A stretch of 64,000 nucleotides of DNA from Candidatus Saccharibacteria bacterium UBA5148 (lineage in GTDB: Bacteria > Patescibacteriota > Saccharimonadia > Saccharimonadales > UBA4665), in NCBI GenBank assembly GCA_002413835.1, contig DHXU01000009.1:14626-78625 (forward strand), given 5' to 3'. The position numbers were made by a program, and so were the translations under genes. This document shows, in pieces, positions 34,495 through 55,244 of the stretch. Under the pieces are notes generated by a model. It was not told the DNA's origin and searched no databases. It worked only from the letters and a program-made list of their open reading frames with translations. The stretch's first letter is position 1, and each line of letters opens with the position of its first letter.

Positions 34495-34530
34495 ATGTAA
34501 ACTCTATAGACAACTAGTTAGGACTCGAAC

Positions 34531-34788
34531 CTAGCCATACAGTTGGGAATGAGTGCCAATTTTGTCAAAAATTGCTTCGTTTTCCCTCTGCAGATACAGT
34601 GCTCGATAATCGCGGGTTATATTGATGCTCCTGTATAACGAATATCTCCCTCTGAGCGCATGATTGCGAAGCCTAGGATGAAGCGGATTGTCCCTAAACA
34701 GCGTGATATGTTCATATAGCTGCAGCTGTAATTTCGTAGACAATTTCTCTGCTTGTTTTACAAACTCTTTCGAGTAGGTGATTTTCAT
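34531..34788 (-). CDS. Type II toxin, RelE/YafQ/ParE superfamily
   Basis: 85 aa: ...LFRDNPLHPRLRNHALRGRYSLYRSINITRDYRALY..., the typical RelE-fold C-terminal pattern. It overlaps the antitoxin stop by 4 nt. Confidence 0.8.
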   Translation of the reverse strand: MKITYSKEFVKQAEKLSTKLQLQLYEHITLFRDNPLHPRLRNHALRGRYSLYRSINITRDYRALYLQRENEAIFDKIGTHSQLYG

Positions 34789-35072
34789 TTTAGTTTAAGC
34801 TTGTTGGCCAAAAAATTGAGTGCTTCGTCGTTATTCTCAAACTTATAGTAGTCTCCAGCCTCAATCTGCTTGCGAGAAGCCGCCAACTCTTTCGCTGTCT
34901 TGGCGTTCGGGACTTCAGGCACATCGAAGGTAACGCTTTGCTCAGCCGCAAAACGTCGGAGCTCATTATTTAAAACAGCACTCACACTAATCCCAAGCTT
35001 ATCTGCAGCTTTTGCGGCAAGTATCTTTAGCTCAGGATCAGTCTTTAAATTAATGACCGCATATTTACTCAT
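34785..35072 (-). CDS. Type II antitoxin, RelB/DinJ family
   Basis: 95 aa with a ribbon-helix-helix-like N-terminus INLKTDPELKILAAKAADKLGISVSAVLNNELRRF. It lies directly upstream of and overlaps the toxin gene. Confidence 0.75.
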   Translation of the reverse strand: MSKYAVINLKTDPELKILAAKAADKLGISVSAVLNNELRRFAAEQSVTFDVPEVPNAKTAKELAASRKQIEAGDYYKFENNDEALNFLANKLKLK

Positions 35073-35078
35073 ACCATA

Positions 35079-35107
35079 AGTATATACCTTTGGACAAAGT
35101 TTGTAAA
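35079..35107 (-). promoter_or_regulatory. Promoter TTTACA-17-TATACT, 6 nt before the antitoxin ATG (leaderless geometry)
   Basis: On the minus strand, -35 is at 35107-35102 and -10 at 35084-35079, with the ATG at 35072. Confidence 0.55.
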
Positions 35108-35108
35108 C

Positions 35109-35137
35109 AGAAAAATAGCCGGCTGGTACCGGCTATT
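35109..35137 (-). terminator. Rho-independent terminator
   Basis: The minus-strand hairpin AATAGCCGG-TACCAG-CCGGCTATT is followed by TTTTT. It separates the exonuclease/tRNA unit from the TA promoter. Confidence 0.65.
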
Positions 35138-35169
35138 AACTTCTTACAAATAATTTCCGTGTTACATAG

Positions 35170-35190
35170 AAATGGTTGCGGGACCAGGAC
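35170..35190 (-). repeat. Duplicated 3' end of tRNA-fMet (att-like direct repeat)
   Basis: AAATGGTTGCGGGACCAGGAC is identical to 35902-35922, which is the tRNA acceptor/T-stem 3' part plus 3 nt of flank. ACATA just outside is also shared. Confidence 0.8.
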
Positions 35191-35284
35191 AGCGCACGTT
35201 AATCCAGCCGCCCGCTACGCTGTGGGCTGTGACTAACGACCGAACCTTTCGCTCCTGGCCGATATGATCACAGAGCTAACATGG

Positions 35285-35839
35285 TTACATCTGAGCCTGC
35301 TCAAAGTGATACGTAGCCGCAGCCATACTCCTCACATCATGAAGAGCATTATGAACATGTCCGTCCATTTTAAGCCCCGCCGCTTTGTATAAGGTGCCAC
35401 TTGAATACTCACTTTGAGTCAGGCCCCATTTTTTTAAACTCTTTTGGATACGAATAAATGGCGCCTTCTCAAAGGGAAAATCGATATCGTAGTAACCGCA
35501 GTTTTGCCTTAAAACATACCAGTCCTTATCAAACGTATATATACTTACGTCGGCGCAAAACTTTACAAATTTTTCAAGGGCAACAGGAAAGATAATCGCT
35601 TTTTCATCCACCTGCTCCTGGGTGATACCTGTCAGCTCAATAAAAAAATTTGGTAGTTCTTTTGTATAAGGTGGAGATGTGAACACATTAAACGAGCTCA
35701 GCTCTTTGCCGGCACTATGGTCATAGCAAATTGCCGCTATTTGTACCACCTGCCGCAAGTCATTTTCACCCGGCCTTCCAGTTTGCCGAGTCATACCCGG
35801 ATAGCAATACTCCAAATCAAGATATACTCTCTTATTCAT
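35285..35839 (-). CDS. DEDDh 3'-5' exonuclease (KapD/ERI-like)
   Basis: YLDLEY (Exo I), TFDKDWY (Exo II-like) and HNALHDVRSMA (Exo III H-x4-D). Confidence 0.7.
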   Translation of the reverse strand: MNKRVYLDLEYCYPGMTRQTGRPGENDLRQVVQIAAICYDHSAGKELSSFNVFTSPPYTKELPNFFIELTGITQEQVDEKAIIFPVALEKFVKFCADVSIYTFDKDWYVLRQNCGYYDIDFPFEKAPFIRIQKSLKKWGLTQSEYSSGTLYKAAGLKMDGHVHNALHDVRSMAAATYHFEQAQM

Positions 35840-35904
35840 AATCTACTCTTAGGATAACAAAAGAACCGCTAATGCGGTTCTAATTACTTCCATTCTACAT
35901 AAAA

Positions 35905-35979
35905 TGGTTGCGGGACCAGGACTCGAACCTGGGACCTCGTGGTTATGAGCCACGCGAGCTGCCGCTGCTCCATCCCGCG
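35905..35979 (-). tRNA. Initiator-type tRNA-Met (CAT)
   Basis: CGCGGGATGGAGCAGCGGCAGCTCGCGTGGCTCATAACCACGAGGTCCCAGGTTCGAGTCCTGGTCCCGCAACCA has the C1-A72 mismatch and close overall similarity to bacterial tRNA-fMet. Its anticodon stem has only two of the usual three consecutive G-C pairs next to the loop. Confidence 0.9.
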
Positions 35980-37684: not shown

Positions 37685-37760
37685 GGGGGCGTAGCTCAGT
37701 GGTTAGAGCAGTCGGCTCATAACTGATTGGTCGTTGGTTCAAGTCCAACCGCCCCCACCA
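37685..37760 (+). tRNA. tRNA with CAT anticodon (elongator Met or Ile2)
   Basis: 76 nt with GGGGGCG/CGCCCCC acceptor, T-arm GTTGG-TTCAAGT-CCAAC, anticodon loop CTCATAA, and an encoded CCA. Confidence 0.9.
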
Positions 37761-37782
37761 AGCATAAGAATTATCAATTATT

Positions 37783-38397
37783 TTAATTTATTTGCCGCTC
37801 AATGCATTTTGCAAGGATATCAATCTCTCGTTTCACTGAGTCGACACTATCACTTCCGTGAACTAGGTCATTGTAATTATTTGTGGCCATTCCTCCACGG
37901 ATCGTGGATAGGTCGCGTATGGAATCAACGTTCCAATTTCCAAGATGACTACGCCAAGTTTCAATTGCCTCGTCAGATTTTAGCAATAATACTGTGCATG
38001 GCGCAGACAGCATAAGGCCTTTATATTCCTCCCATTTGTTTTTGAAGTGAGGGAAAGAATACGGTGCCATCTCCAGCATTGTATCTCTAGGGCCACCTGC
38101 ATAAAACTCTTCAACAGCCTGATCGTCAAGCAGGACAGAGAATTTAGCCAGCATCCCCATGCCACTAACCCGTTCTTCTATCGCGTCGGCAGCCTGTGCA
38201 TCGTCAAGCATAAATAGGTTTGCGTCCGGCCCAAGTTGCGGCCTTAATAAGGCTAAAGTCAATTCACCGCCTTCAATCAGTTCTTGCACTCGAGCACTAC
38301 GTAATAGCGCATGGGCTTCCTGCAAGCCAGGTATGTTTAAGGCTTCGGTGCGGTTAAGGTGGTAATTATGAAAAGGGAATTTAAATCTGTTTTCCAT
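37783..38397 (-). CDS. Nucleoside diphosphate kinase-like protein with ~45-aa N-terminal extension
   Basis: LTLALLRPQL, AVEEFYAG and the active-site-like NDLVHGSDSVDSVKREI (N-x-x-H-G-S-D of NDK). At 204 aa it is longer than canonical NDK. Confidence 0.65.
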   Translation of the reverse strand: MENRFKFPFHNYHLNRTEALNIPGLQEAHALLRSARVQELIEGGELTLALLRPQLGPDANLFMLDDAQAADAIEERVSGMGMLAKFSVLLDDQAVEEFYAGGPRDTMLEMAPYSFPHFKNKWEEYKGLMLSAPCTVLLLKSDEAIETWRSHLGNWNVDSIRDLSTIRGGMATNNYNDLVHGSDSVDSVKREIDILAKCIERQIN

Positions 38398-38490
38398 GTG
38401 CTAATTAAACAATTAAGTATAGTGTGAATCAAGCTATTATTGTGCATTTACCGATAATACGACATAATAATATCAAAGGATAAAATAACA

Positions 38491-39123
38491 ATGAGTAGAG
38501 ATATCGTATTGTTACAGGGATACCCGGGCTCTGGAAAATCTTCTGCTGCTACGCAACTTGCTGAAACATATAATAACCCTGACTACGATCAGTTAGCCCA
38601 CTATTCGGTGGGCAACCATTTGCGCGGCATTATCAATGGGACTATTGAATCAACTCAAACCGCGCATATACTCGAGCAATCTGAGGTGCTAGCTGTCTCA
38701 CAGCGTCTCGATGACCATGTCGTGAATGAGGTCGTAAAAGAACATTTAGCCACACTTCCTGCACGGAGCATAACGCTCATAGACGCCTATCCGCTATATG
38801 TCGATCAGATACCTGAATTTCAGAGAAATGTTACAGAACTGAGCGCCAAGGTACTTGGTGTCGTTGAGATTGAGATAGATCCAAAAATTGCATTCGGTCG
38901 TATAATTCAGCGCGGTACGCGAACCCACGAAGACCATGCTGATGTGGCTTTCGCGCAGCGCAGAATCGATGAGCATACCACTGATTGCCTACCAACTACA
39001 GTAGCCTTAGGACGTATCTACCCGACCTTACATATCGACGGTTCGCGAACAAGTTCCGAGGTCGTAACACTTTTAGATGAGGCTATCGACATACTTGCAG
39101 CCAGAGAGACGGGAATTCAATAA
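38491..39123 (+). CDS. Adenylate/nucleoside-monophosphate kinase-like P-loop protein
   Basis: LLQGYPGSGKSSAATQLAE (Walker A), YSVGNHLRG (compare the ISTGDLLR motif of adenylate kinase), and IDAYP (compare DGFPR). Confidence 0.6.
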   Translation: MSRDIVLLQGYPGSGKSSAATQLAETYNNPDYDQLAHYSVGNHLRGIINGTIESTQTAHILEQSEVLAVSQRLDDHVVNEVVKEHLATLPARSITLIDAYPLYVDQIPEFQRNVTELSAKVLGVVEIEIDPKIAFGRIIQRGTRTHEDHADVAFAQRRIDEHTTDCLPTTVALGRIYPTLHIDGSRTSSEVVTLLDEAIDILAARETGIQ

Positions 39124-39145
39124 TGTTCATGTACAAAGATGATGC

Positions 39146-39907
39146 ATGAAAAAAACTGTCAATAATTACGATGACTACGCCGATGACATAGCTCAAAGCA
39201 ACCAAGAGGGAACTAACAGGGCGCATCTATATATCGAGAAGCCTGCAATGTACGAGGCATTGCCTGATGTGTCAGACAAGCATATTCTGTGCGTTGGCTG
39301 CGGCACAGGCGAGGAATGTGACCATATGGCCAGCATGGGCGCAGTAGTAACCGGAATAGATATTTCACGTCGCTCAATTGAGATAGCACGAAAAAGATTT
39401 GAATCAACAAAATTTGAAATTATGGATATGAGCGAATTGCACTATCAAGACAATAGTTTCGACTTGGTATATTCTAGCCTGACCATTCATTATGCAGAGT
39501 ATCTTGAACAAGTGTTGAAAGAAATATTTCGAGTACTGAAGCCGGGCGGTAATTTGATATTTTCAACATTGCACCCGATCAAATGGGGCTCCGAGGTTAG
39601 ACGCGACGCAAAGGAAGAGCGCAAAAAGTCATTCGTATTAGGCTACGATTCATTCGTAGAACCGTCCCATGTCTATGGTGATTACTTGCATACGAAACAA
39701 ATAACCCAAAAACCCGAAGGCTATCCGGTAATAAGTTACTGGAATAGACCAATATCAGAATATTTAAGAATCATTAAGGAGGTTGGTTTTAACCTCGTCG
39801 ATTTTATCGAGCCTTCTCCAGTCAGCGAGCTAAAGTCAATGGATATAGATTACTGGGAAATCCAATCAAAAATACCGCAGTTCATGATCTTTAAACTAGC
39901 AAAATAG
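39146..39907 (+). CDS. Class I SAM-dependent methyltransferase
   Basis: Motif I ILCVGCGTGEE, post-I GIDIS, motif II FDLVYSS, and LKPGGNLIF. Confidence 0.8.
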   Translation: MKKTVNNYDDYADDIAQSNQEGTNRAHLYIEKPAMYEALPDVSDKHILCVGCGTGEECDHMASMGAVVTGIDISRRSIEIARKRFESTKFEIMDMSELHYQDNSFDLVYSSLTIHYAEYLEQVLKEIFRVLKPGGNLIFSTLHPIKWGSEVRRDAKEERKKSFVLGYDSFVEPSHVYGDYLHTKQITQKPEGYPVISYWNRPISEYLRIIKEVGFNLVDFIEPSPVSELKSMDIDYWEIQSKIPQFMIFKLAK

Positions 39908-39913
39908 TCATTT

Positions 39914-41179
39914 CTATTTCAGGGAATGATTGGCCATTAGGTAATCACTAACTTTTGCTATGCCCTCAATGTAAGATTCGACGACGCTGGATTCGTCCTG
40001 GAAACCCCATACGGGCAACTTGATTATTCCACTATGAAATTTTTCCGCATTAGGAAAAGGCCCCTGTAACGGTAAAGGATTTTTATATAAGCGTGGCATA
40101 ATCTCATTAGGTGAGATGAATAAGGGCAGTTCGTTTATTAGCCCGGTAGAACCTGGTATATCTACTTCAACAAGACCTTCGGCTGTTAATGCGTCAGCAA
40201 ACTCCTGACGAGATACGCCAAAAGATCGCTGTTCATCGTACTGAAGTACATATGCGTACCAGCTACTCTGCGTGCCGGTAGAAATTGTCTGGGGAGTCTT
40301 TAAGAAAGGATATCGTTCGAATGCATTTGTAAATGCTTCAGCGTAAGTCTGGCGCTGAGCTATAAATTCCTCAAGGTGTTTAAATTGCTGTGCCGCGAGC
40401 GCTACTGCTAACGGATGAGCTCTCAGCTTTAGGCCAAGCCCCGTAAGATAATATCGCGCTTCCATGTCGCTACTAGGAATTTCATTTTTTGGACGCTTAT
40501 TATAATGTCCTTGCAAGAGTGCTCGATTGAAGAGTTTACTGTCATCCGTTAAGAATACTCCACCCTCGCCGCCGGTTATCGTCTTTGGACCTTGGATACT
40601 CCAAGCAGCAGCTGAGCCGAATGCCCCTACAGGCCGGTCATGAATACGTGCTCCATGCGCATGGGAGCAATCCTCTAACAAATAGATGTTTTTCGAGGCG
40701 CACCAGTCGCTTATCAGCGCAATGTCCTTAACAGGAATTCCCCACATGTGAGTCACAATTACTGCTTTAGTTTTATCGGTAAGTTTTGTTTTGATTTCTT
40801 CAAAACTAATACTACCCTGATCGTCACAGTCAGCAAACACGGGAACCGCTCCTGTATACATGAGGGGGCTGACAGTTGCATGAAAAGTATAGACTGGAGC
40901 GATGACCTCATCTCCAGGCATCAGGCCGATTGCTTCAAACATCGAGAATATAGCAGATGTGCCCGAGTTAGAGAGAATAGCTAATTTTTTGCCATGATAT
41001 GACGCAAAGGCATCTTCAAATTCACCAAAAATTCCTGACCTATCATATATAGAAATGCTCTTATGCAACTGATTGACAACCGCATCTTCGGCCTCTTGAG
41101 TTATTCTTGGCCAAACATACTTTGCTCTATCATCTTCAATAGTTTTTTGACCGCCATTAATCGCTAGTTTAGAGGCCAT
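39914..41179 (-). CDS. DegT/DnrJ/EryC1/StrS family PLP-dependent aminotransferase
   Basis: AINGG start, LSNSGTSAI, LLEDCSHAHG, and the lysine motif SIQGPKTITGGEGG. Confidence 0.85.
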   Translation of the reverse strand: MASKLAINGGQKTIEDDRAKYVWPRITQEAEDAVVNQLHKSISIYDRSGIFGEFEDAFASYHGKKLAILSNSGTSAIFSMFEAIGLMPGDEVIAPVYTFHATVSPLMYTGAVPVFADCDDQGSISFEEIKTKLTDKTKAVIVTHMWGIPVKDIALISDWCASKNIYLLEDCSHAHGARIHDRPVGAFGSAAAWSIQGPKTITGGEGGVFLTDDSKLFNRALLQGHYNKRPKNEIPSSDMEARYYLTGLGLKLRAHPLAVALAAQQFKHLEEFIAQRQTYAEAFTNAFERYPFLKTPQTISTGTQSSWYAYVLQYDEQRSFGVSRQEFADALTAEGLVEVDIPGSTGLINELPLFISPNEIMPRLYKNPLPLQGPFPNAEKFHSGIIKLPVWGFQDESSVVESYIEGIAKVSDYLMANHSLK

Positions 41180-41181
41180 AG

Positions 41182-42222
41182 TTATTTGATCTCCTTTAAT
41201 TTATTCAGGCATGTGTGCGGATCAATAGTTGAATGATTTTCGGCTGATTCATATGAGGCTTCTATAAATGCAACATGCTCGAGATGTTGAGGGTCGATGC
41301 ATCCTCGATTTTTTCCATCGATTATATTCCTGGCAAACTCGTCAAGCTGATCCAATATAGCTGAGGGCCAAGATCCTATACGCTCTAATACTTCTATCTC
41401 GTTCCCGTCTATGTCTCTACGACATACTTTGCCTCTTTTGATGTAGACACTGCCTTTAGAGCCGTAAGCGATTAATGATTCATCTTTCTCGGGATATACA
41501 CGAGATACAACTAAACTGCCTAGTATGACTTGATCATCACCCTTGTTTTCACTGTATGTAAAATTCGCTATTGCCGTATCTTCTACGTCATACTGCTGAC
41601 CTTCTCGGTTGCTTGTAGAGAGCCGACACGTGATGGAGTCGGGAAGCCCGAAGTACCACACTATCAAATCGATATAATGATAGCCGAGGTCAACCAAAGC
41701 TCCACCTCCTGCGAAAACTTTGCTCGAACGCCAACCTTCATCTAATCGGGCGATGTTTAATGTGTACCTCGCCTCGATTGAATATATTTTACCGATTCGT
41801 TTAACCAGCTGACTAAAGCTCAAGAAAATAGGATTGAACCTTCTTTGTAAGGTGACCTGTATTGAGATATCATTCTCCTGTGCGAGCTTAACCATAGCAC
41901 TAGCTTCCTCGAATGAGGTTGCAAATGGTTTCTCCTTGATAATGTTTATTTTCTTAGCGGCGAGTACATCGATTAATGGCAAGTAATCTTTATGAGGAAC
42001 GGCTATTAGAGCAACGTCGGGTAGTTTAGGTAAAAGCCGTAAGAGGTCTGATACTTCCGTAGCATAAGGAACATTATATTCTTCTGCTGTCTTTTGAGAA
42101 ACGGACTGATCAATATCGGAAACGCCAACTAAATTCCAATAATTACTTTCTTGTATAGCCGGAAGGTGATCTTCTAGACTTTGATGGCCAAGTCCAATCA
42201 CTATAATATCTAGCTTACTCAT
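41182..42222 (-). CDS. Gfo/Idh/MocA family NAD(P)-dependent oxidoreductase
   Basis: Rossmann start DIIVIGLGHQSLEDHLP and EKPFA motif. It lies 2 nt upstream of the aminotransferase gene. A GGAG RBS is present. Confidence 0.8.
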   Translation of the reverse strand: MSKLDIIVIGLGHQSLEDHLPAIQESNYWNLVGVSDIDQSVSQKTAEEYNVPYATEVSDLLRLLPKLPDVALIAVPHKDYLPLIDVLAAKKINIIKEKPFATSFEEASAMVKLAQENDISIQVTLQRRFNPIFLSFSQLVKRIGKIYSIEARYTLNIARLDEGWRSSKVFAGGGALVDLGYHYIDLIVWYFGLPDSITCRLSTSNREGQQYDVEDTAIANFTYSENKGDDQVILGSLVVSRVYPEKDESLIAYGSKGSVYIKRGKVCRRDIDGNEIEVLERIGSWPSAILDQLDEFARNIIDGKNRGCIDPQHLEHVAFIEASYESAENHSTIDPHTCLNKLKEIK

Positions 42223-42318
42223 TTGAACTCCGTTGACTTAGGGTAGCATGCTATAATTACGCTACTATTATTCAGTTATTTATACACTATACGAGTAACC
42301 CTAACAAGAAAGTACATC

Positions 42319-42864
42319 ATGACAGACATCAGTGTTAGTAGCATCGAGCTCGAGCTAACGTACCTAGCAAGCTCTTTACCTAAAGAGATAAATGGCGCAG
42401 CAGCTACGACGCTAAAGGATATATACGTACCTCAGACTGATGGCATACATCCACGACTTCGTATTCGTAGAAAAGGCGACAAGTATGAAATAACCAAAAA
42501 AGTACCCATTGATGAAAATGACGCATCTGCGCACACCGAGTTAACAATCCCACTTAATCAAGATGAGTTTGAGGCACTCGAGCATACTAGCAATAAGGTG
42601 GTTCAGAAGGATAGATACAAAATAGTTATCGATGGCCATGTCGCTGAAGTCGATGTATTTACAGGTGACTTGGAAGGTTTAGTGGTTATTGACTTTGAGT
42701 TTGATACAGAAGAAGAGAAGTCGAATTTTGTTGCTCCAAACGTTTGTCTTGCAGACGTCACCCAAGAGCAGTTCATTGCTGGCGGTAAGCTGGCGGGTAA
42801 ACGGTATGCGGACATACAGGATGAGCTAGACAGGTTCAATTTTAAGCCATTGAAGATTTCGTAA
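42319..42864 (+). CDS. CYTH domain protein (triphosphate tunnel metalloenzyme family)
   Basis: N-terminal IELELTYL (ExEx-T instead of ExExK), RLRIRRKGDKYEITKK, DRYKI...AEVDVFTGDLEGLVVIDFEF. Confidence 0.65.
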   Translation: MTDISVSSIELELTYLASSLPKEINGAAATTLKDIYVPQTDGIHPRLRIRRKGDKYEITKKVPIDENDASAHTELTIPLNQDEFEALEHTSNKVVQKDRYKIVIDGHVAEVDVFTGDLEGLVVIDFEFDTEEEKSNFVAPNVCLADVTQEQFIAGGKLAGKRYADIQDELDRFNFKPLKIS

Positions 42865-42868
42865 TGGT

Positions 42869-43258
42869 TTGCCACACATGACTCAAGAAATCACAGATCT
42901 CGTAGAACAAGCATCGGAACATCTCCGTCAAAACTACAAACAATACCAGCATCATGTTGCTTCGGCATTGAAATGCAACGATAAAGTATACCTGTCATTG
43001 CATCTTGATACAAAGGGTTTTGATATTTGCGCTGAGCCAATTGCCCTTTCCAACGCACTCGCGAACGGCGAAACAGAATTTAAATATATAGTGGCGGTGA
43101 TTATGAAGAAAGATGGTCTGACTGAGATTGTAAGTCCTTGTGGTAACTGTAGACAAATGCTACTCCAATACTGTCCTCAGGTAGAAGTAATCCTTAACGC
43201 CGATGATCGTATCGCTACAGTTGCAGCAAGTAAGTTGTTGCCATGGCCATACAACTAA
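42869..43258 (+). CDS. Cytidine/blasticidin-S deaminase-like zinc deaminase
   Basis: 129 aa with CAEPIA (C/H-A-E) and PCGNCRQ zinc-ligand motifs. It starts 4 nt after the CYTH gene. Confidence 0.75.
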   Translation: MPHMTQEITDLVEQASEHLRQNYKQYQHHVASALKCNDKVYLSLHLDTKGFDICAEPIALSNALANGETEFKYIVAVIMKKDGLTEIVSPCGNCRQMLLQYCPQVEVILNADDRIATVAASKLLPWPYN

Positions 43259-43391
43259 TATCACCTCGATCGGATTAATTGAACTCTTGAATAATTCCTC
43301 AAAGTGCCTACGTTTAGCTGTGCATAAAAAATCCGATTAGTCAAAACTATTAATACGTTCAAGGCAGACCGTGCTATACCAAAACTATGCT

Positions 43392-43601
43392 TTAATATCG
43401 ATAGTTATTCTCTGAGTAAGCAACGACTTGCCTGGTTTCATTCCTCCATATTGGCGTCGGACTGTCTATAAACCACTGAACGAGGTCAATCATCATCCGT
43501 TCAAAACTTGTCGCTTCTGCCCCACCAAAACCATTTTCAGTCGATTTAATAAATGTGTCGAAAGGCTCTTTCGTAGTTCTTGGTGCTGGCGTAGCGCTCA
43601 T
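43392..43601 (-). CDS. Small hypothetical protein (paralogous to the fragment at 44966-45148)
   Basis: 69 aa with FERMMIDLVQWFIDSPTPIWRN. It lies 5 nt downstream of the Nudix-like gene. Confidence 0.45.
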   Translation of the reverse strand: MSATPAPRTTKEPFDTFIKSTENGFGGAEATSFERMMIDLVQWFIDSPTPIWRNETRQVVAYSENNYRY

Positions 43602-43606
43602 ACGAT

Positions 43607-44092
43607 TTAGGCAACTAAATCAGAGCCTTCAAGCGATGCTATCCACTCGTCACGGTCTAGCAACCCTGTATCGGTCAGGAATATACTGCTGCAACATGAG
43701 CCGTGTTTGGCGGACGGCATAAGGTCTGATGGGTCGGAAGCCCAGTTCTGCTCAATGTAAGCAGTGTGCTCGGTTTCGGCCTTTGTAACGTCAGGCTCGC
43801 TACCTGCCGTAAGGTTCATCTCGATGTCCATCAAGAAGATGTCGTAACTATTGCGCTTTTGGAACATTATGCCCAAGAAGCGGCCAGGAGTGGCTTCACA
43901 GGCCAGTTTCTCGCGGCAGACCCTTGCTGCGGCCTGTTCTGGCAATTCACCAGGTAACATTGTTACGGCGGGTAGCCCTACCGCGCCTCTTAAATCTGGG
44001 TCGTCATCAGGACGCTTCACGGTTAGAAAATGGTCAGGCCTGTTTGGGTCGGTTAGTATGACGGCTACTACATATTTTATTTGTTTACTCAT
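43607..44092 (-). CDS. Nudix-like hydrolase (degenerate Nudix box)
   Basis: VVAVILTD...FLTVKR...LPGELPEQAAARVCREKLACE approximates GX5EX7REUXEEXGU, with the EE pair not conserved. Confidence 0.5.
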   Translation of the reverse strand: MSKQIKYVVAVILTDPNRPDHFLTVKRPDDDPDLRGAVGLPAVTMLPGELPEQAAARVCREKLACEATPGRFLGIMFQKRNSYDIFLMDIEMNLTAGSEPDVTKAETEHTAYIEQNWASDPSDLMPSAKHGSCCSSIFLTDTGLLDRDEWIASLEGSDLVA

Positions 44093-44129
44093 GCGCTAAT
44101 AATACCAGAGTTTGAAATAAAGTATGATG

Positions 44130-44891
44130 TTACACAAGTGTAAGTATGACTGGGTAGTGGTCTGATATTGCATCGGTTAGGTTGTCTTTTGGCACCTCAA
44201 TGCCTACTACCGACTTAATGAGACTCGCTGTGGCGAACATGTAGTCTAAGCGCATGTTAGCGGCATGGTACATATCCCTGTTTGCTGGTGTGGGAACAGT
44301 AGTCTGACGCTTACCTAACAGTGCCGCAACATCAATTAAGCCTTTGTCCGTAAAGTAGGCTGTTACGTCATAGCGCAGCTTGTCGGTGCCGAACTTCTTT
44401 ATTCCTTGTAGCGCAAGGTTGCTAATTAGCTCATCAGGATATTTATCACTCTCATTAAGGCTGTTAAAGTCACCCATAATTATCGTGGGCTTATCCATAT
44501 CAACCAGCGACGTTAATAGTGTGGCCTCGGCCAGTCTGCTGTCCTCGTCGCCTGGGTTCAGGTGAACATTCCAAAGGTCTAGTGTTTCATCGCCATGTTG
44601 TATGGTCGTTTGTACGGCACTATGCCAGAAGCCGTCTGTATGTACCTGTGAGCGTAGAATTGGTAGGCGCAATAGAGTAGCCAGCTTAAAGCGCGTATTA
44701 CTATCGCCATATACATACGAATTAAGACCCGTCTCGGCTGCCAGCGTTTCAAGTTGCGATGGTAAGCCATCATTCCAGCCATTTGCCTCTTGAACGCATA
44801 AGACATCAACGTCTTGCTGCGCAACAAAGTCTTGCACCAAAGGTAGAGTATCCTGTGCGCCCTCAAAGAGGTTATAAGTGGCTATACGCAT
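44130..44891 (-). CDS. Endonuclease/exonuclease/phosphatase (EEP) family protein
   Basis: RIATYNLFEG, DVLCVQEANGW, GDFNS and SDHYPV motifs. Confidence 0.8.
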   Translation of the reverse strand: MRIATYNLFEGAQDTLPLVQDFVAQQDVDVLCVQEANGWNDGLPSQLETLAAETGLNSYVYGDSNTRFKLATLLRLPILRSQVHTDGFWHSAVQTTIQHGDETLDLWNVHLNPGDEDSRLAEATLLTSLVDMDKPTIIMGDFNSLNESDKYPDELISNLALQGIKKFGTDKLRYDVTAYFTDKGLIDVAALLGKRQTTVPTPANRDMYHAANMRLDYMFATASLIKSVVGIEVPKDNLTDAISDHYPVILTLV

Positions 44892-44897
44892 GTCTTT

Positions 44898-44926
44898 ATT
44901 ATAGCATAATTAGTATTAACGGTCAA
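44898..44926 (-). promoter_or_regulatory. Promoter TTGACC-17-TATAAT, 6 nt before the EEP ATG (leaderless geometry)
   Basis: On the minus strand, -35 is at 44926-44921 and -10 at 44903-44898, with the ATG at 44891. Confidence 0.55.
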
Positions 44927-44965
44927 AATAGTTCAAGGCCAGACTAGTTACACTTATTACGCCGC

Positions 44966-45409
44966 TTAATATCTATAAGACATCTCATGTTTAATAGTAG
45001 CGGCGGCACTTAATTGGCGTTTCCACGGCGGTGTCGGATTATCTATAAACCACTGAACGAGGTCTGCTATCATTAGTTCAAAGTTTGTCTGTTCGTCCCC
45101 ACCATAAAGCTTATGCTTAATGACTTCTTCGGAAGTTATTTTTGTTTGCTATGATTTGTACATGCCAGAAACAAAACACCTTTACTTGCATACGCTTGAA
45201 ATCGAACCATTAGAAGTTGGCGGATCTTACAATCCCTTGCCCGCGCACCGTAGCGTAACCAGCCGCCCAAGGCCAAGTTGTTCCTTGACGAGCAAATATA
45301 AAAGCTGCAACAATCTGAAAAACCGGTGATTGTAATAGGCTTGCCACATATCAGCATCAAGTTCGCCGACCTTCTGGCCGTCGAAATCTTTCAAATCAGC
45401 TTTTTTCAT
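44966..45409 (-). pseudogene. Probable decayed gene spread over three reading frames
   Basis: Three consecutive minus-strand ORF pieces in different frames. The first is MKKADLKDFDGQKVGELDADMWQAYYNHRFF... (45409-45227). The second is ...GGWLRYGARARDCKIRQLLMVRFQAY... (to 45136). The third is ...NFELMIADLVQWFIDNPTPPWKRQ... (45148-44966), which lacks an ATG until 45073. Confidence 0.4.
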
Positions 45410-45455
45410 AGGTACACTAAATTATAGCCTATGGTTCGGTACGTCACCACGCTCT

Positions 45456-45956
45456 CTAAGCTGACAATTCGATCGGAGACACGACGGCCGGGTCACGTGG
45501 CGGGATGACTGTCTCGATAGTGTGGTTGACGGCAGTGCCGAAAGCGATGACCTGATCGGCTACCATACTAGCTTCATCACCGGATGCCGGCAGGTTTTTT
45601 GAAGCCACGAAACGGCCAGCCTGGTCAATTCCCAGTGCCACTTCGCGCGAACTGGCGATACTTGTTAGTACATGTACCAGGACAGCGCCGGCGCGGGTTG
45701 GATAACGGTCTGTAATATTCTCATCGGTAATGAGTGCACTGAGCCCATAGGTTGCGGTCTTCCAATCATAGATTGCCATGCCGCCGAGAGGCTTCACGAC
45801 ATGCGTCGTCTTGTCGTCATCGACTGCCAGGAGATCGAACAACCTGGCGCCTTGCCCGGATTGCTGATTACCGATGCCGGCAGACGTCAGCTGGGCTGCA
45901 AATCTATCTAATTCAGTTAATCTTGTTGGTGGAGTAGAGCGTACTTGATGTTTCAT
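45456..45956 (-). CDS. Hypothetical protein
   Basis: ORF 45456..46139 is trimmed to the internal Met MKHQVRSTPP at 45956. The upstream part is AT-rich promoter DNA overlapping the divergent GT2 gene. Confidence 0.5.
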   Translation of the reverse strand: MKHQVRSTPPTRLTELDRFAAQLTSAGIGNQQSGQGARLFDLLAVDDDKTTHVVKPLGGMAIYDWKTATYGLSALITDENITDRYPTRAGAVLVHVLTSIASSREVALGIDQAGRFVASKNLPASGDEASMVADQVIAFGTAVNHTIETVIPPRDPAVVSPIELSA

Positions 45957-46028
45957 ATTTGTTAATATACAACCGAAAATATAGAATGTAAAATGCTTAT
46001 GTACGCAATAATAAACTATAAAATATAC

Positions 46029-46057
46029 TTGCATAATCATAAGTATTATGTTACTAT
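46029..46057 (+). promoter_or_regulatory. Promoter TTGCAT-17-TACTAT, 6 nt before ATG 46064 (leaderless geometry)
   Basis: -35 at 46029-46034 and -10 at 46052-46057. This implies the synthase starts at ATG 46064 rather than at the track's GTG 46058. Confidence 0.5.
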
Positions 46058-46063
46058 GTGGCA

Positions 46064-47680
46064 ATGGATTTATTTGGACGGAGTAATGGTGGTAATCACC
46101 CCGGATCTGGACCGCATCTGCACGGCCCGACTTTGTCATTGATCGTCGGTATTGCTGTACTTGGCGCCCTGTTATACGGCCACTTCATCTATAATTATCA
46201 TAACGCCGGCGACCTGTTGCCGTATATCCTTGTCGCCATCGCTGAGGGCATTATTTTGCTCCAGGCACTGATAGCCCTGTGGACGATTCTGTCCGGCGGC
46301 TTCAACCCGCGCGATTATTATTACTACGCCGCAAAGAGTTATCTGGTAAACAACGACCGGATCAGCTCTGAGACGCCGCTGTTCCTGCGCAGCAAACACG
46401 TCAGCATCGATGTCTTCGTGCCTGTGTACGGCGAGCCGCTGGAAACAATACGCCGCACCGCTATCGCCGCCCGGAACCTCAATGGCCTGCACACGACATA
46501 CATACTTGATGATGGTAAAAGTGACCAGGTCCAGACGATGGCAGCCGAAATCGGTGTCCGGTACATCCGCCGCGCGAACAATGCCCATGCAAAAGCCGGT
46601 AACCTGAACTATGCACTGCACATGACCCGTGGCGAATACTTTGTTATCTTCGACGCCGACTTTGTGGCCAAACCTAATTTTCTGCTCGAGACACTGCCAT
46701 TCTTCGTCAAACCGCAGGTCGCCTTTGTTCAGACGCCACAGCATTACGGCAACCTGAACAACTTGATCTCCCGCGGCGCCGGCTTCATGCAGAACGTCTT
46801 CTACCGCCTGATCCAGCCCGGCAAGAACCGCTTCAACGCCGCGTTTTGTGTCGGCACCAATGTCATCTTCCGCCGTTCGGCCATCGAAGAGGTGGGCGGC
46901 ATCTACGAAGCATCCAAATCTGAGGACATCTGGACCTCACTGGCACTGCACGAAAAGGGTTACCAGTCGATATTTATCAATGATATCCTGGCAACTGGTG
47001 ACGCACCGGAAACTATCAGCGCCTTCTTCAAGCAGCAATTACGCTGGGCGACCGGCGGCTTTGAAATCCTGTTCGGCCATAACTTCTTCCGCAGCTCACT
47101 GAGCTTTGACCAGAAGCTGCAGTACATCGGCACAGCCTCATACTACCTGCACGGCCTGGCTATCCTGCTGCTGATGATGCTGCCGCCGCTGCACATCTTT
47201 CTCAACCTGTCACCAGTCAACCTATCTGTTGCGTTCATCACCTGGCTGCTATTCTACGTCGGCTTTTACGGCATGCAGATTGTTGTCGCCATCTACACCA
47301 TGAACGGCTTCCGACTGGAAACGATTATCCTGGCTATGGCATCCTTCCCGATCTATCTGAAGGCCCTGACAAATGTCCTGCGCGGTCATGACGAAGCCTG
47401 GCAGGCTACCGGCACTGATGGCAAAAAAGACAACCCGTTCAACTACGTATCGGCTCAGATCCTGTTATTCGTCTTCCTGTTCTTCACCTCTGCCTTCGGC
47501 ATCTGGAAAATCTACTACACCGGCGTCTTTGCGCTGTCGGTCGTCTGGAACCTGATCAACACCTTCATCTTTGCTGCCTTCCTGGTCATCGTCTGCAAGG
47601 AACGATTATCAATGCGCACGGCACACCCCCACCGTAGCAAAATTGCTATGCCGGTTAAAATGCAGGAGGTTACATCATGA
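46064..47680 (+). CDS. Processive family-2 glycosyltransferase, cellulose/curdlan-synthase-like
   Basis: The D,D,D,QxxRW set is present: VFVPVYGEP, YILDDG, VIFDADF, VQTPQ, SEDIWTS and QQLRWATGG. TM helices flank the catalytic domain, and no PilZ-like C-terminal domain is present. Confidence 0.85.
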   Translation: MDLFGRSNGGNHPGSGPHLHGPTLSLIVGIAVLGALLYGHFIYNYHNAGDLLPYILVAIAEGIILLQALIALWTILSGGFNPRDYYYYAAKSYLVNNDRISSETPLFLRSKHVSIDVFVPVYGEPLETIRRTAIAARNLNGLHTTYILDDGKSDQVQTMAAEIGVRYIRRANNAHAKAGNLNYALHMTRGEYFVIFDADFVAKPNFLLETLPFFVKPQVAFVQTPQHYGNLNNLISRGAGFMQNVFYRLIQPGKNRFNAAFCVGTNVIFRRSAIEEVGGIYEASKSEDIWTSLALHEKGYQSIFINDILATGDAPETISAFFKQQLRWATGGFEILFGHNFFRSSLSFDQKLQYIGTASYYLHGLAILLLMMLPPLHIFLNLSPVNLSVAFITWLLFYVGFYGMQIVVAIYTMNGFRLETIILAMASFPIYLKALTNVLRGHDEAWQATGTDGKKDNPFNYVSAQILLFVFLFFTSAFGIWKIYYTGVFALSVVWNLINTFIFAAFLVIVCKERLSMRTAHPHRSKIAMPVKMQEVTS

Positions 47681-48387
47681 ACTTTATGAAACGACTAAAA
47701 CTTTTACTGGCCATCATCATTCTCGGCATAGGCTGCTTCGGTATCATTGTCTATGAAGACAATGCCATCGCGACCGTCGGCGCAAGTTCCGCCTCAATCA
47801 GCGCACCAGCCTACAATGTAGGCAGCGAATATGACGGTGTCATCACCCGCCAATACGTCAACACTGGCGACAGTGTCAAAGCCGGCCAGAATCTGTTTGA
47901 ACTACGTAGCAACCGCCTGACGACTGACCTGGAATCCGGTACGATCAAGGCTTCGAACCTGACTTCAAAATTGTCTGATGACGGAGGCCTGATACTGGCT
48001 GCTCAGCGCGATGGTGTCGTCAACCAGATCTCCTATCTCGAAGGCTCGTTTGTCAGCGGCGGCAAAACGATTGCTACCATTTCCGGCACCAACGGTGTCA
48101 GTGTGCGGGCCAACTTCGAGCTTTCCGGCCAGCAGTATGCCAAGGTCAAACCCACAACTGCAGTACTGGTACAGCTCGGTGGTACGACGATAGCCGCGAC
48201 TATAACCAGCATCACGCAGCAGTCCAGCAACGGCCACACCATCACGACGGTCAACGCCAATCTGCCAACCTTGCAGATACGCCAGGCTATCTACTCTACC
48301 GGCACACCGACAACCGCTACATTGCAATTGAACGCCAATCCGCTGTACAAACAGTTGCAGCAATCAGCGAAAAGCTATATACACTAA
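47677..48387 (+). CDS. HlyD-like membrane-fusion/biotin-lipoyl-like barrel protein
   Basis: N-terminal TM segment, lipoyl-like hairpin GVITRQYVNTGDSVKAGQNLFEL and a second half DGVVNQISYLEGSFVSGGKTIATI. It has an ATGA overlap with the synthase gene. Confidence 0.6.
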   Translation: MNFMKRLKLLLAIIILGIGCFGIIVYEDNAIATVGASSASISAPAYNVGSEYDGVITRQYVNTGDSVKAGQNLFELRSNRLTTDLESGTIKASNLTSKLSDDGGLILAAQRDGVVNQISYLEGSFVSGGKTIATISGTNGVSVRANFELSGQQYAKVKPTTAVLVQLGGTTIAATITSITQQSSNGHTITTVNANLPTLQIRQAIYSTGTPTTATLQLNANPLYKQLQQSAKSYIH

Positions 48388-48390
48388 ACT

Positions 48391-50394
48391 ATGACTACAC
48401 GCCTCCGGTCTATCCTGTTGGTTGGGCTTGCAATACTACTGATCGTGTGCGCCAGTTACTTTGCGTGGCGCAGTCATGCGTCCACAGCAGCGCCGACGCA
48501 GTTGACTGTCAGTCAGAAAGCCGCCGATGCCCTGCCCCGCCGGTCTCCGAACATACCGCATCCACTGCTGGCGGCCGGCCTGCTGCCACCGACCAACAAA
48601 TGGTATAGTTCGCTGGCCTTTTCTGCACAGCACCAGCCGGTCTATATCTATCCACTGACGTACGCTCCGACCGATACCGGATTCAGTATCAGTAACCCGC
48701 CGATTGTCAGTAGCGCCGGGGCTATCTTCGGCAGCCATGTACCTGATGTCAGTGTCAACCTTGGCACGGCCCGGCATATTGTGCAGGCATACGACGATCT
48801 GTCGGTAACTGTCGGGCAACAGGATGCGGCTGGCGCAACCACAGCAACCACCCGGATAACCCAGGGCTCGCCGTTTGCCTTTACTGAATTACGACAGGCC
48901 GGTTCTGTCACAGTCAGCGTACTCGGGACTGTCACGGCACGCAGTGCCCAGACATATCTCCTGACGGTCGGCGAACGACACTATGGTCTATACACCACGG
49001 CGCCGGCCAGCGTGCATGGCCAGACGCTGGATATTGATGGCAAAAAGGGTGGCATCGTGACCGTTTTTACACTACCGGCCGGAGCGAATCAGCAGCTGTA
49101 TTTTGATGCTGCCTCCCACCCGATTACCAGCACCAGCGTTACTTATAAGACGACGAATTCGGCCATTACAACCGACTATGTCATGTCAGCCGGCGGCAAA
49201 AAGACCCTATTCGCCGCGACTCCAACGATGCATATCGATGGACAGCCGACAGGTGGTACATTTACGACACTACTCGGCAAACAGCCGGTATACAGCGGCA
49301 CGAGCTTCAGCGACCGGCAGGATGCCCCTGCCATGCCGCCATCTGAACTTCCACTCGGCAATCTGACAGCCAGCCAGCGTACTGACCTCATCCAGAAGTT
49401 GGACAGTGATACCGCCAGCCTTAGCTTCACGCAGACCGACAGCTATTTCGGTGGTAAAGAACTGTACCGCGCCGCCAACCTGCTGCAGATTGCCGAAAGC
49501 CTACATCAGACCAATACTGCCGCCGTTATAAAAGCTAAGTTATCCGCCCGTTTCGACACCTGGCTGGAACCATCAGGTGCCCTGCACCGCGATACGCTGA
49601 GCTTTTATTACGACCCGAATTATCACGGCGTAGTCGGTCTGAAATCCAGTTACGGCTCGGATACATTCAATGATCATCATTTTCACTACGGTTATTTCAT
49701 GTATGCCGCGGCAATCCTGAGCAAATATGACAGCAGCTTTTCCAAAAAACACGGTGACATGATAAACCTTCTGATATCCGACATCGCCAGCAATGCTTCC
49801 AGCAGCCTGTTCCCGAAACTTCGAGTCTTTGATTCCTACGCCGGTCACAGCTGGGCTTCCGGCACTGGCGATTTTGCCGATGGTAACAACCAGGAATCCA
49901 GTTCTGAAGCCACCAATGCCTGGTACGGTATGTATCTCTGGAGCCAGGTAACCCATAATGCACCGCTGGCCTCTGAAAGCCGCTGGTTATACAGCCATGA
50001 AAGCCGCGCAGCTACCAATCAGTGGCTGTCCGTCAGCAGCCCTATAGCTGATGGCGTGCCCTATAGCCATCCTACATCCGGCATCGTCTGGGGCGGCAAG
50101 ATTGACTATTCGACATTCTTTAGTCCACGGCCCCAGGCCATCCTTGGTATCCAGCTGATTCCGATGAGCCCAGGACAGACCTATCTCCAAAACACGGCAA
50201 TCACCTCGAATATTACTTCGGCAGCACCAGCTCCAAAAGACCTCTCGGGGCAGTTTGATGATTACCTGGTTATGTATCAGGCACTTCATGATCCAGCGCA
50301 GGCGCTCTCGAATGCCACGCATATCAGCGGCCCTGATGACCTGGACAATGGCAACTCGCTGACCTATCTCTACGCCTGGCTCTACAGCCACTAA
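48391..50394 (+). CDS. Glycoside hydrolase family 81-like endo-beta-1,3-glucanase, membrane-anchored or secreted
   Basis: 667 aa with an N-terminal anchor. FNDHHFHYGYFMYAAA and DGNNQESSSEATNAWYG match the GH81 catalytic-region signatures as I recall them. It starts 3 nt after the HlyD-like gene. Confidence 0.7.
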   Translation: MTTRLRSILLVGLAILLIVCASYFAWRSHASTAAPTQLTVSQKAADALPRRSPNIPHPLLAAGLLPPTNKWYSSLAFSAQHQPVYIYPLTYAPTDTGFSISNPPIVSSAGAIFGSHVPDVSVNLGTARHIVQAYDDLSVTVGQQDAAGATTATTRITQGSPFAFTELRQAGSVTVSVLGTVTARSAQTYLLTVGERHYGLYTTAPASVHGQTLDIDGKKGGIVTVFTLPAGANQQLYFDAASHPITSTSVTYKTTNSAITTDYVMSAGGKKTLFAATPTMHIDGQPTGGTFTTLLGKQPVYSGTSFSDRQDAPAMPPSELPLGNLTASQRTDLIQKLDSDTASLSFTQTDSYFGGKELYRAANLLQIAESLHQTNTAAVIKAKLSARFDTWLEPSGALHRDTLSFYYDPNYHGVVGLKSSYGSDTFNDHHFHYGYFMYAAAILSKYDSSFSKKHGDMINLLISDIASNASSSLFPKLRVFDSYAGHSWASGTGDFADGNNQESSSEATNAWYGMYLWSQVTHNAPLASESRWLYSHESRAATNQWLSVSSPIADGVPYSHPTSGIVWGGKIDYSTFFSPRPQAILGIQLIPMSPGQTYLQNTAITSNITSAAPAPKDLSGQFDDYLVMYQALHDPAQALSNATHISGPDDLDNGNSLTYLYAWLYSH

Positions 50395-52817: not shown

Positions 52818-52903
52818 ACCACCTGCCTGAGTCAATGGAAGCTCCAGCGTGTGTTTTCTGGCGTTTTTGCTATACTCAAAAGATAGAGCATTAGCGGTAC
52901 AGT

Positions 52904-55054: not shown

Positions 55055-55091
55055 CAGTTTGACTCTATTTTATATCTGCTATGATTGATCA

Positions 55092-55213: not shown

Positions 55214-55244
55214 GCAATGATGGAGATGGAACGTTACCCGTCAG

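Follow-up and report, generated by a model that had tools for sequence, protein, structure and literature searches.

The only known enzymology for 3'-amino-3'-deoxynucleosides is that of the puromycin core and of the guanosine triphosphate (GTP)-mimic prodrug 3'-amino-3'-deoxyguanosine (ADG). The cores of the puromycin (pur), A201A (ata) and cystocin (cst) clusters share one logic, in which a nicotinamide adenine dinucleotide (NAD)-dependent nucleoside triphosphate (NTP) 3'-dehydrogenase is combined with an aminotransferase, a pyrophosphatase detoxifying the 3'-amino-NTP, a monophosphatase and a methyltransferase (PMC11641026). In the pur cluster, Pur4 is the aminotransferase, Pur7 the Nudix NTP pyrophosphatase, which is counted among the resistance enzymes, and Pur3 the monophosphatase, and Pur10 resembles RifL at its amino terminus with 32% identity (PMC11641026). 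The adg operon of Photorhabdus luminescens is itself a low-GC island, whose genes adgB-E are homologous to pur10, pur4, pur7 and pur3 and, when expressed in E. coli, yield ADG (PMC9239236). In the known pathways, the Nudix enzyme (Pur7/AdgD) advances synthesis and keeps the toxic NTP analogue low (PMC11641026; PMC9239236). Here, we report on a 7.7-kb island (37761-45455) in a 64-kb stretch of the genome of Candidatus Saccharibacteria bacterium UBA5148, hereafter the window, in whose coordinates all positions are given. Judging from its sequence, this island can be named as carrying a Pur10/Pur4 (AdgB/AdgC)-type 3'-amination cassette with a CYTH enzyme in the place of the Nudix hydrolase. The first-pass annotation had found no named system to which the region could be matched, a statement that has to be withdrawn in view of the adg homology. 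We moreover propose, with confidence evenly balanced between acceptance and doubt, that the island is a horizontally acquired cassette which would turn a ribonucleoside triphosphate into a 3'-amino-3'-deoxy nucleoside or nucleotide of the puromycin-core or ADG type.

The core of the cassette is formed by a Gfo/Idh/MocA dehydrogenase gene and, downstream of it after an intergenic gap of 2 nt, a DegT-family aminotransferase gene. The window DegT shares 40% identity over 369 aa with the Photorhabdus AdgC orthologue (P0138; E 3e-93, 273 bits), and the window Gfo shares 27% identity with the AdgB orthologue (L100:4932-5897) in a full-length alignment of 332 aa (E 3e-34), rising to 39% (E 1e-75) with the cassette enzyme of a Streptomyces sp. 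769 plasmid. The best PDB scores are 128 bits for DegT and 63 bits for Gfo, and no characterised sugar or cyclitol enzyme in the PDB attains even half of what the AdgC and AdgB orthologues score. In a neighbour-joining tree, the window DegT falls within a Nudix- or CYTH-linked clade that also holds the Pantoea (adg-like) and Streptomyces plasmid cassettes. All NCBIfam equivalog cut-offs were missed. The link to Pur10 and Pur4 runs via the adg orthologues and not by direct alignment with the Pur sequences.

Regarding these orthologues, tblastn searches against plasmids retrieved a 6.3-kb plasmid of Candidatus Pantoea carbekii and a Streptomyces plasmid, both with a Gfo-aminotransferase-Nudix set. 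With the Pantoea aminotransferase as query, a Photorhabdus laumondii match of 72% identity was obtained, and the Photorhabdus locus L100 holds Gfo, aminotransferase, Nudix and inositol monophosphatase genes, the same four genes as the Pantoea plasmid. The forward primer published for adgB (PMC9239236) aligns, with three mismatches, to the beginning of the Gfo gene of L100, where no match is expected by chance, and L100 is hence taken as the orthologue of adgB-E. The plasmid of Pantoea carbekii, a stink-bug symbiont, is reduced to repA and the adgB-E-like Gfo, aminotransferase, Nudix and inositol monophosphatase genes (pBMSBPS2, L093, NZ_CP010909.1, 6287 bp), and about 46 Pantoea plasmid records match the DegT query. 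On the Streptomyces sp. 769 plasmid pSGZL (L094:3417-10709), a second Nudix gene follows the cassette, and an extra alanyl-tRNA synthetase gene is located about 2 kb upstream, with a regulator gene between; this plasmid-borne synthetase might be a resistance copy against an aminoacyl-nucleoside product.

The island has in common with adgA-E (PMC9239236) a Gfo gene directly followed by DegT, a small cassette, a low-GC setting and a dedicated nucleotide phosphohydrolase. It differs by a CYTH triphosphatase instead of the Nudix AdgD, by an ExoIII-like endonuclease/exonuclease/phosphatase (EEP) enzyme instead of the inositol-monophosphatase AdgE and by the lack of a major facilitator superfamily exporter, and it adds cytidine deaminase, methyltransferase, nucleoside monophosphate (NMP)-kinase-like and nucleoside diphosphate kinase (NDK)-like genes. 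Its genes form divergent and convergent units whereas adg is one operon, its host belongs to the Candidate Phyla Radiation (CPR), and the base, judging from the deaminase, is probably not guanine. For each role of the pur, ata and cst cores (PMC11641026), the window holds a candidate. In contrast to pur, it lacks the peptidyl-aminonucleoside synthetase (Pur6), the acetyltransferase and hydrolase conferring self-resistance (Pac, NapH) and an exporter, and its candidate pyrophosphatase and monophosphatase, CYTH and EEP, have folds unrelated to those of pur; homology to the Pur proteins was traced through the adg orthologues.

The cassette is by no means restricted to UBA5148. DegT homologues with 50-85% identity are numerous and taxonomically scattered, with sources named as Patescibacteria, Kaiserbacteria, Parcubacteria, a Holosporaceae bacterium, an archaeon and Mycobacteroides saopaulense, and cassette-type loci were also named Woesebacteria, Dojkabacteria, Nomurabacteria and a Micrarchaeota archaeon or came from Streptomyces and Enterobacterales plasmids. 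We clustered the genes neighbouring DegT in 80 metagenomic loci with a DegT alignment and on contigs of individual homologues, comparing 58 related loci (DegT identity to the window of 40% or more) with 24 more distant ones. Gfo is directly upstream of DegT in 44 related loci. A canonical Nudix gene is a neighbour in 41/58 related and 2/24 distant loci, with a position directly downstream of DegT in 38, and orthologues of the window CYTH protein occur in 10/58 and 0/24, respectively. CYTH and Nudix are mutually exclusive, a Nudix gene being found in two of the ten CYTH loci and in 39 of the 48 others (Fisher p=4e-4); neither is present in 9/58 loci, six of which are contigs ending at or within ~100 nt of the DegT match. 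Among the other neighbours, thymidylate-kinase-like P-loop kinases (15/58 related, 2/24 distant), Gre/Rnk-like proteins (9/58, 0/24), methyltransferases (5/58, 0/24), NDK-like proteins (2/58, 0/24; directly downstream of DegT in L050 and L054) and adenylate-kinase-like proteins (2/58, 0/24; L049 and L052) were noted, and the clustering yielded no glycosyltransferase or acetyltransferase family recurrent beside the cassette. In the subclade of the window, the unit of cytidine deaminase (CDA)-CYTH and Gfo-DegT is kept from 58% to 85% DegT identity, and locus L096 retains the five-gene core methyltransferase/DegT/Gfo/CYTH/CDA with genes 76-93% identical. Altogether, of the ten intact island genes, seven are met again with the cassette in independent lineages, unlike the EEP-Nudix-69aa operon.

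The CYTH protein, although below the Pfam CYTH threshold, aligns over the whole tunnel domain of the triphosphate-tunnel metalloenzyme NeuTTM, with acidic and basic tunnel residues kept; the triphosphate-binding Arg, Lys and Glu residues are conserved across 14 orthologues. It departs from NeuTTM by an N-terminal ExExT motif in place of ExExK, a trait of the whole subfamily, and by a conserved C-terminal extension of its own (DVTxExxIAGGxL). This subfamily counts 67 representatives at E<=1e-30 among 1.84 billion proteins. The presence of the CYTH gene beside Gfo-DegT suggests that its substrate is a nucleotide rather than inorganic triphosphate. Its pairing with the deaminase beside Gfo-DegT is also seen in L096, L097, L014 and the P0002 contigs. 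Proteins in which such components are fused, namely DegT-Nudix of 557-570 aa (P0156, P0159-P0164), CYTH-Nudix of 325 aa and HD phosphohydrolase-CYTH of 409 aa (P0256, P0307), link the members of the cassette to each other.

Some related loci depart from this arrangement. A radical-SAM (S-adenosylmethionine) enzyme is encoded near DegT in 7/58 of them (L037, L040, L041, L042, L043, L048 and L051), and in three it occupies the Gfo position, with the order CYTH, radical-SAM, DegT (L041:8715-10010, L042:3228-4523 and L051:8870-9988), which suggests an oxygen-independent replacement for the oxidation step in those loci. Elsewhere, Gre/Rnk-like proteins with the GreA/GreB C-terminal domain stand beside the cassette (for instance L034:11739-12197, and also L097:7057-7623); such proteins may rescue RNA polymerase where a blocked 3' end has stalled it.

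On this basis a route can be drawn, all of whose steps are deduced from homology and gene context. The Gfo dehydrogenase would oxidise the 3'-OH of an NTP with NAD+, as Pur10/AdgB do, and DegT would convert the resulting 3'-keto group into an amine, like Pur4/AdgC. The CYTH tunnel enzyme, replacing the Nudix Pur7/AdgD, would then remove pyrophosphate or triphosphate. With low confidence, the ExoIII-like EEP protein might remove the last phosphate, the role of Pur3/AdgE, or repair 3'-blocked chain ends. The deaminase and the methyltransferase, the latter in a Pur5-like role, could tailor the base or the amine or else protect the producer; for the deaminase, this would mean either C-to-U conversion of the product or self-protection. 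Finally, the adenylate-kinase-like protein (NMP to nucleoside diphosphate, NDP) and the NDK-like protein (NDP to NTP) may turn salvaged NMP into NTP for the pathway or else re-activate the analogue. Given that the deaminase is conserved, a cytosine nucleotide is suggested as substrate, which is hence possibly a cytidine nucleotide. The product, once a target cell has triphosphorylated it, would be a nucleotide mimic terminating RNA or DNA chains, the target being the host or a competitor of the episymbiotic Saccharibacterium; this bacterium thus probably makes a nucleotide-analogue weapon.

Several points weigh against this proposal. Identity to the validated enzymes is moderate (27-40%), so that the base specificity or even the substrate class could differ, and the connection with Pur10/Pur4 is indirect. 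Orthologues of the Pur7-type Nudix and of the inositol-monophosphatase-type Pur3 are absent, and the island has no exporter of the Pur8/AdgA kind. The roles given above to the EEP protein and the kinases, like any given to the degenerate Nudix and the 69-aa proteins, are guesses, and the EEP-Nudix-69aa operon, which has no counterpart in other cassette loci, may be unrelated cargo. Moreover, kinases able to activate an analogue would suit use within the cell no less than an exported prodrug.

The content of the island is given in Table 1. The domain calls of the first-pass annotation (NDK-like, adenylate-kinase-like, methyltransferase, DegT, Gfo, CYTH, deaminase-like, degenerate Nudix and EEP) were all reproduced, and what it had listed as a decayed gene turned out to be a truncated paralogue of the 69-aa gene.

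Table 1. Genes and other features of the island, with the tRNA gene at its left border.
Feature	Position	Strand	Evidence and remarks
tRNA, anticodon CAT (Met or Ile2 type)	37685..37760	+	ARAGORN; Rfam 72 bits; left island border
NDK-like protein, 204 aa	37783..38397	-	Pfam NDK E 1.4e-13, C-terminal half only; HGSDS histidine motif kept
Adenylate-kinase-like P-loop NMP kinase, 210 aa	38491..39123	+	Pfam ADK E 1.9e-11; PDB adenylate kinases E 1e-8
Class I SAM methyltransferase, 253 aa	39146..39907	+	Pfam Methyltransf_11 E 8e-27; convergent on DegT
DegT-family pyridoxal-phosphate aminotransferase, 421 aa	39914..41179	-	Pfam DegT E 1e-65; AdgC/Pur4 homologue
Gfo/Idh/MocA NAD-dependent dehydrogenase, 346 aa	41182..42222	-	Pfam; AdgB/Pur10 homologue
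CYTH/triphosphate-tunnel metalloenzyme, 181 aa	42319..42864	+	NeuTTM (2fbl, 3typ) E 7e-9; divergent from Gfo
Tetrameric-type cytidine/blasticidin-S-deaminase-like protein, 129 aa	42869..43258	+	Pfam dCMP_cyt_deam_1; TTG start; operon with CYTH
69-aa open reading frame (ORF)	43392..43601	-	Last gene of EEP-Nudix operon; called as gene on contig L005
Nudix-fold protein, 161 aa	43607..44092	-	Pfam NUDIX E 9e-6; degenerate box REKLACEA, both catalytic glutamates replaced
EEP (ExoIII-like) phosphoesterase, 253 aa	44130..44891	-	Pfam Exo_endo_phos E 7.5e-21; TIGR00633 xth full-length E 2e-10
Truncated paralogue (pseudogene) of 69-aa gene	44966..45148	-	78-nt direct repeat, 79% identical; translation and alignment
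60-aa ORF	45227..45409	-	Right edge of low-GC stretch; called on L001-L003, L006

Among the partner genes, the deaminase has intact CAE and PCxxC motifs (zinc ligands and catalytic glutamate) and matches cytidine deaminases and blasticidin-S deaminase in the PDB at E 1e-8 to 1e-10. The methyltransferase keeps its position on the P0002 contigs and in L096, where identity is 76%, and related ones occur in five other cassette loci. Its PDB matches are generic, the best annotated being phosphoethanolamine N-methyltransferases, from which N- and O-methylation are not separable; an assignment as an amino-sugar N,N-dimethyltransferase of the TylM1/DesVI type was considered and, with matches of this kind, found unsupported. 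For the NDK-like protein, an AlphaFold model (pLDDT 76, pTM 0.78) gave NDKs as all of its top PDB fold matches, over ~152 columns, and a helical N-terminal extension of ~44 aa. The EEP protein has its catalytic motifs, and the best promoter-like site of the region lies upstream of it (44926-44898), the single strong one in a promoter and terminator scan whose counts were at chance level; it has no PDB sequence match, and its single-sequence AlphaFold model (pLDDT 47) was unusable for fold comparison. The possibility that the window Nudix protein is a decayed Pur7-type Nudix was rejected, as it did not match a hidden Markov model of the cassette Nudix proteins even at E 10 and shows no similarity to the Pantoea Nudix. 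Pfam searches found in the island no Inositol_P domain of the kind that a Pur3/AdgE-type monophosphatase would have, and the EEP phosphoesterase is the only candidate for its place. The 69-aa ORF had no family match in Pfam, NCBIfam or PHROGs searches, nor did the 60-aa ORF in domain and PHROGs searches. No transporter is encoded within 37761-45455, the nearest one, an ABC-2 transporter (55245-56938), being core sequence conserved in the related genome UBA5152.

The horizontal acquisition of the island is supported by its composition, by its absence at the orthologous tRNA of UBA5152 and by GC-deviant cassette islands in other hosts. The drop in GC described in the first-pass annotation is real and begins directly at the tRNA(CAT), the gap to the end of the first island gene (37783) being 22 nt. 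Indeed, the island has a GC content of 43.5% versus 52.0% in the remaining window, is the minimum-GC 7.7-kb stretch anywhere in the 64 kb in a sliding profile, and has a mean GC at third codon positions (GC3) of 0.43 for its nine ORFs of at least 90 aa versus 0.58 for 53 other ORFs (Mann-Whitney p=4e-5). The Nudix (GC 0.51) and EEP (GC 0.47) genes are nearer the host value than the other island genes, and the island may hence be composite. Of the traits of a tRNA-targeted integrative island, tRNA adjacency, foreign composition and absence from a relative were found; domain searches confirmed that the island has no integrase, and a repeat search found no direct repeat from the tRNA 3' end at the distal border. 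The tRNA(CAT) gene is a probable insertion hotspot. Several metagenomes of permafrost and soil have contigs with identical copies of the island, which indicates that it is stable in this population.

The comparison with a related genome at this tRNA rests on one relative, since a scan of the genome collection with the flanking M23 peptidase returned Candidatus Saccharibacteria bacterium UBA5152 only, a species-level relative with 81% identity for M23 in tblastn (76% for the best segment in the original scan), 67% for DivIC and 75% for PNPOx. UBA5152 carries the identical tRNA and, ~0.5 kb further on, an ABC-2 permease and ATPase instead of the island; 276 masked N (L009:1188-1463) lie within those 0.5 kb past tRNA-Met, so that the junction is only partly readable. 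The window orthologues of these transporter genes are at 55245-56938 with their orientation kept. Thus, the segment absent from UBA5152 at this tRNA spans ~17.5 kb (37761-55244) and is larger than the island as first delimited, whose 7.7 kb hold for the foreign composition alone. In other hosts, the cassette deviates from its flanks by -11 GC points in L097 and Mycobacteroides (L012), -13 in L053, -7 in L010 and in Photorhabdus (L100) and about +21 in L015 and L061, compared with -8.6 in the window; a tRNA gene lies at most 1 kb from it in L013, L056, L098 and L099, and it is also carried on small plasmids. Deviation in several hosts, proximity to tRNA genes and plasmid carriage together fit repeated horizontal transfer. 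A phage-borne cassette was sought and not obtained, phage genomes and IMG/VR contigs giving only distant DegT proteins of 23-30% identity, and a PHROGs search of the island proteins returned nothing phage-specific.

The 3'-amination chemistry might also be put to use inside the producer, against viruses and other mobile genetic elements. The kinases, Gfo and DegT would then make a 3'-amino-3'-deoxy-NTP chain terminator within the cell, in a viperin-like manner, and the CYTH or Nudix enzyme, the Gre/Rnk-like factors and the ExoIII-like EEP protein would limit self-poisoning. The analogy with prokaryotic viperins is purely functional: these enzymes modify the ribose 3' position of an NTP, giving the chain terminator ddhNTP, but a radical-SAM viperin is unrelated to a dehydrogenase and an aminotransferase. 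Nucleotide kinases often neighbour prokaryotic viperins as well, and NMP-kinase-like and NDK-like genes recur beside the cassette. The exporter is absent not only from the island but from most related loci, and Gre/Rnk-like factors, which could rescue stalled RNA polymerase, are present in 9/58 loci and in L097. Some contexts are accessory or defence-like: L010 and L011 encode a type ISP restriction enzyme and SLFN-helicase/MazG, RelB/YafQ is found close to the window island as well as in L098, and the P0002 contigs carry Fic proteins. We nevertheless find antiviral use rather unlikely. A (pyro/tri)phosphatase belongs to the core almost everywhere and, in the validated pathways, drives the product to the free nucleoside; adg and pur, the relatives with validated function, yield secreted antibiotics. 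A sensor or regulator is not evident, nor was a PHROG or phage association found. PADLOC gives no defence family beyond generic domains, PADLOC-DB v2 returning only a generic methyltransferase (mad2) and a weak Nudix match (PDC-S07, E 2e-5) and none for the Gfo, CYTH, EEP and adenylate-kinase-like proteins. The nucleotide-targeting conflict system offered among the first explanations has a small probability in our view, with neither a PADLOC family nor a phage-borne cassette on its side. The wider idea that the Gfo-DegT-(Nudix or CYTH) cassette, together with kinases and Gre/Rnk-like factors, serves ultra-small episymbionts (CPR bacteria and DPANN-type archaea) widely for immunity or warfare by nucleotide analogues is, to our mind, similarly doubtful; if true, a viperin-like strategy would have been reached by unrelated chemistry, and the producer would be kept safe by its phosphohydrolase, Gre-like factor and ExoIII-like enzyme.

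A different substrate is assumed by an amino-sugar or aminocyclitol route, in which Gfo and DegT would act on a sugar nucleotide, a sugar phosphate or inositol, the Nudix or CYTH enzyme would free the nucleotide carrier and a kinase would re-phosphorylate the product, after the model of kanosamine (RifL/RifK/RifM or NtdC/NtdA/NtdB), UDP-GlcNAc3N (GnnA/GnnB) or scyllo-inosamine (StrI/StsC) synthesis. The logic of Gfo and DegT is indeed common to these pathways, and the kanosamine and 3-amino-sugar routes share with the island a Gfo-family 3-dehydrogenase, a DegT-family aminotransferase and a phosphohydrolase. Pur10 itself resembles RifL (PMC11641026), and the PDB matches of DegT include 2-deoxy-scyllo-inosose and scyllo-inositol aminotransferases (~118 bits) as well as NtdA. 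Relatives are annotated as perosamine synthetase by JGI, an APH-family kinase adjoins the cassette in L010, and a radical-SAM enzyme replaces Gfo in some loci. Such a replacement recalls BtrN of butirosin synthesis. Against this stands the weaker similarity of the window proteins to the sugar enzymes (NtdA 58, WbpE 67 and WbpB 29 bits), in line with the more than twofold higher AdgC and AdgB orthologue scores. The NCBIfam equivalogs for UDP-GlcNAc 3-dehydrogenase, inositol 2-dehydrogenase, PseC and others were missed by wide margins. The kanosamine and 3-amino-sugar routes use HAD phosphatases, not Nudix or CYTH enzymes, and have no nucleobase-directed partners; conversely, no glycosyltransferase, acetyltransferase, amidinotransferase, HAD phosphatase or cyclase recurs in the cassette loci, where the partners are cytidine deaminase, NMP kinases and NDK-like proteins, and a base-specific deaminase would have no role in a sugar route, which we thus hold to be improbable. 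Of the nucleoside or aminocyclitol pathway with a deaminase that had initially been suggested, the nucleoside half is now the best supported, through the adgB/adgC homology and the nucleotide phosphohydrolase and kinase partners, and the aminocyclitol half is not borne out. It could finally be that housekeeping genes of nucleotide salvage (ndk, adk, cdd, Nudix and others) are merely clustered and AT-rich, since salvage-type families account for several of the products. CPR bacteria are not known to synthesise nucleotides de novo, and Saccharibacteria depend on salvage. This reading is largely refuted and, in our opinion, has almost no chance of being right: the kinases and the deaminase are far under the housekeeping equivalog cut-offs (NDK 44.9 versus 155; adk, TIGR01351, 57.3 versus 168; deaminase, PRK06848, 93.4 versus 131), the island is absent at this site in UBA5152, GC3 is strongly unlike that of the genome, and Gfo, DegT, CYTH and the methyltransferase have no salvage role. 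Furthermore, the core is common to scattered Mycobacteroides, Streptomyces plasmids, Enterobacterales plasmids and archaea. The horizontally acquired salvage module of the first explanations accordingly keeps its acquisition, in view of the composition, of UBA5152 and of GC-deviant cassettes elsewhere, and loses its salvage function to the sub-cut-off scores.

Regarding the 3'-amination cassette, its chemistry is already known from puromycin, A201A, cystocin and ADG. What appears to be new is the CYTH-for-Nudix variant, the radical-SAM-for-Gfo variant in other loci, the added deaminase, methyltransferase and kinase set and the wide presence among CPR bacteria; among the papers that could be searched, none was found to connect this pathway to CPR bacteria. 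Saccharibacteria and other CPR bacteria pass for metabolically minimal organisms, to which secondary metabolism is seldom ascribed, and here a saccharibacterial island and dozens of CPR and archaeal loci are tied to the enzymology of 3'-amino-3'-deoxynucleosides. If the proposal is true, episymbionts would divert scavenged nucleotides into chain-terminating analogues, offering a molecular handle on host harm, competition and phage resistance. Moreover, two non-orthologous replacements (CYTH for Nudix and radical-SAM for the NAD-dependent dehydrogenase), together with possible new base specificities, possibly cytidine, would be relevant to the discovery of nucleoside analogues.

Other parts of the window are also variable. 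Between the tRNA and the ABC-2 transporter, the block 45456-55244 has normal GC and is likewise absent in UBA5152; it encodes a protein of 166-227 aa, a GT2 cellulose-synthase-like glycosyltransferase, an HlyD-like adaptor, a GH81 beta-1,3-glucanase and two ~715-aa paralogues with weak Kelch hints, and, from these predicted families, resembles a module for the synthesis and turnover of glucan. Another variable patch of lower GC (33437-35979) lies beside an initiator-type tRNA-Met (35905-35979, minus strand) and holds genes for an RNase T-like exonuclease (35285-35839), for the toxin-antitoxin pair RelB/YafQ (about 34528-35072) and for a 230-aa protein in which a shikimate-kinase-like P-loop is weakly hinted at; between DivIC/tRNA and PNPOx, UBA5152 has different genes from this patch. 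Three tRNAs with a CAT anticodon are found within 18 kb (20316-20391, 35905-35979 and 37685-37760), each followed by a lower-GC patch; the middle one has the initiator C1-A72 mismatch, and the other two are elongator Met or lysidine-type Ile2 tRNAs. Finally, two isolated low-GC ORFs, at 11041-11619 and 8169-8483 (GC 0.425; GC3 0.33 and 0.40), may also be foreign.

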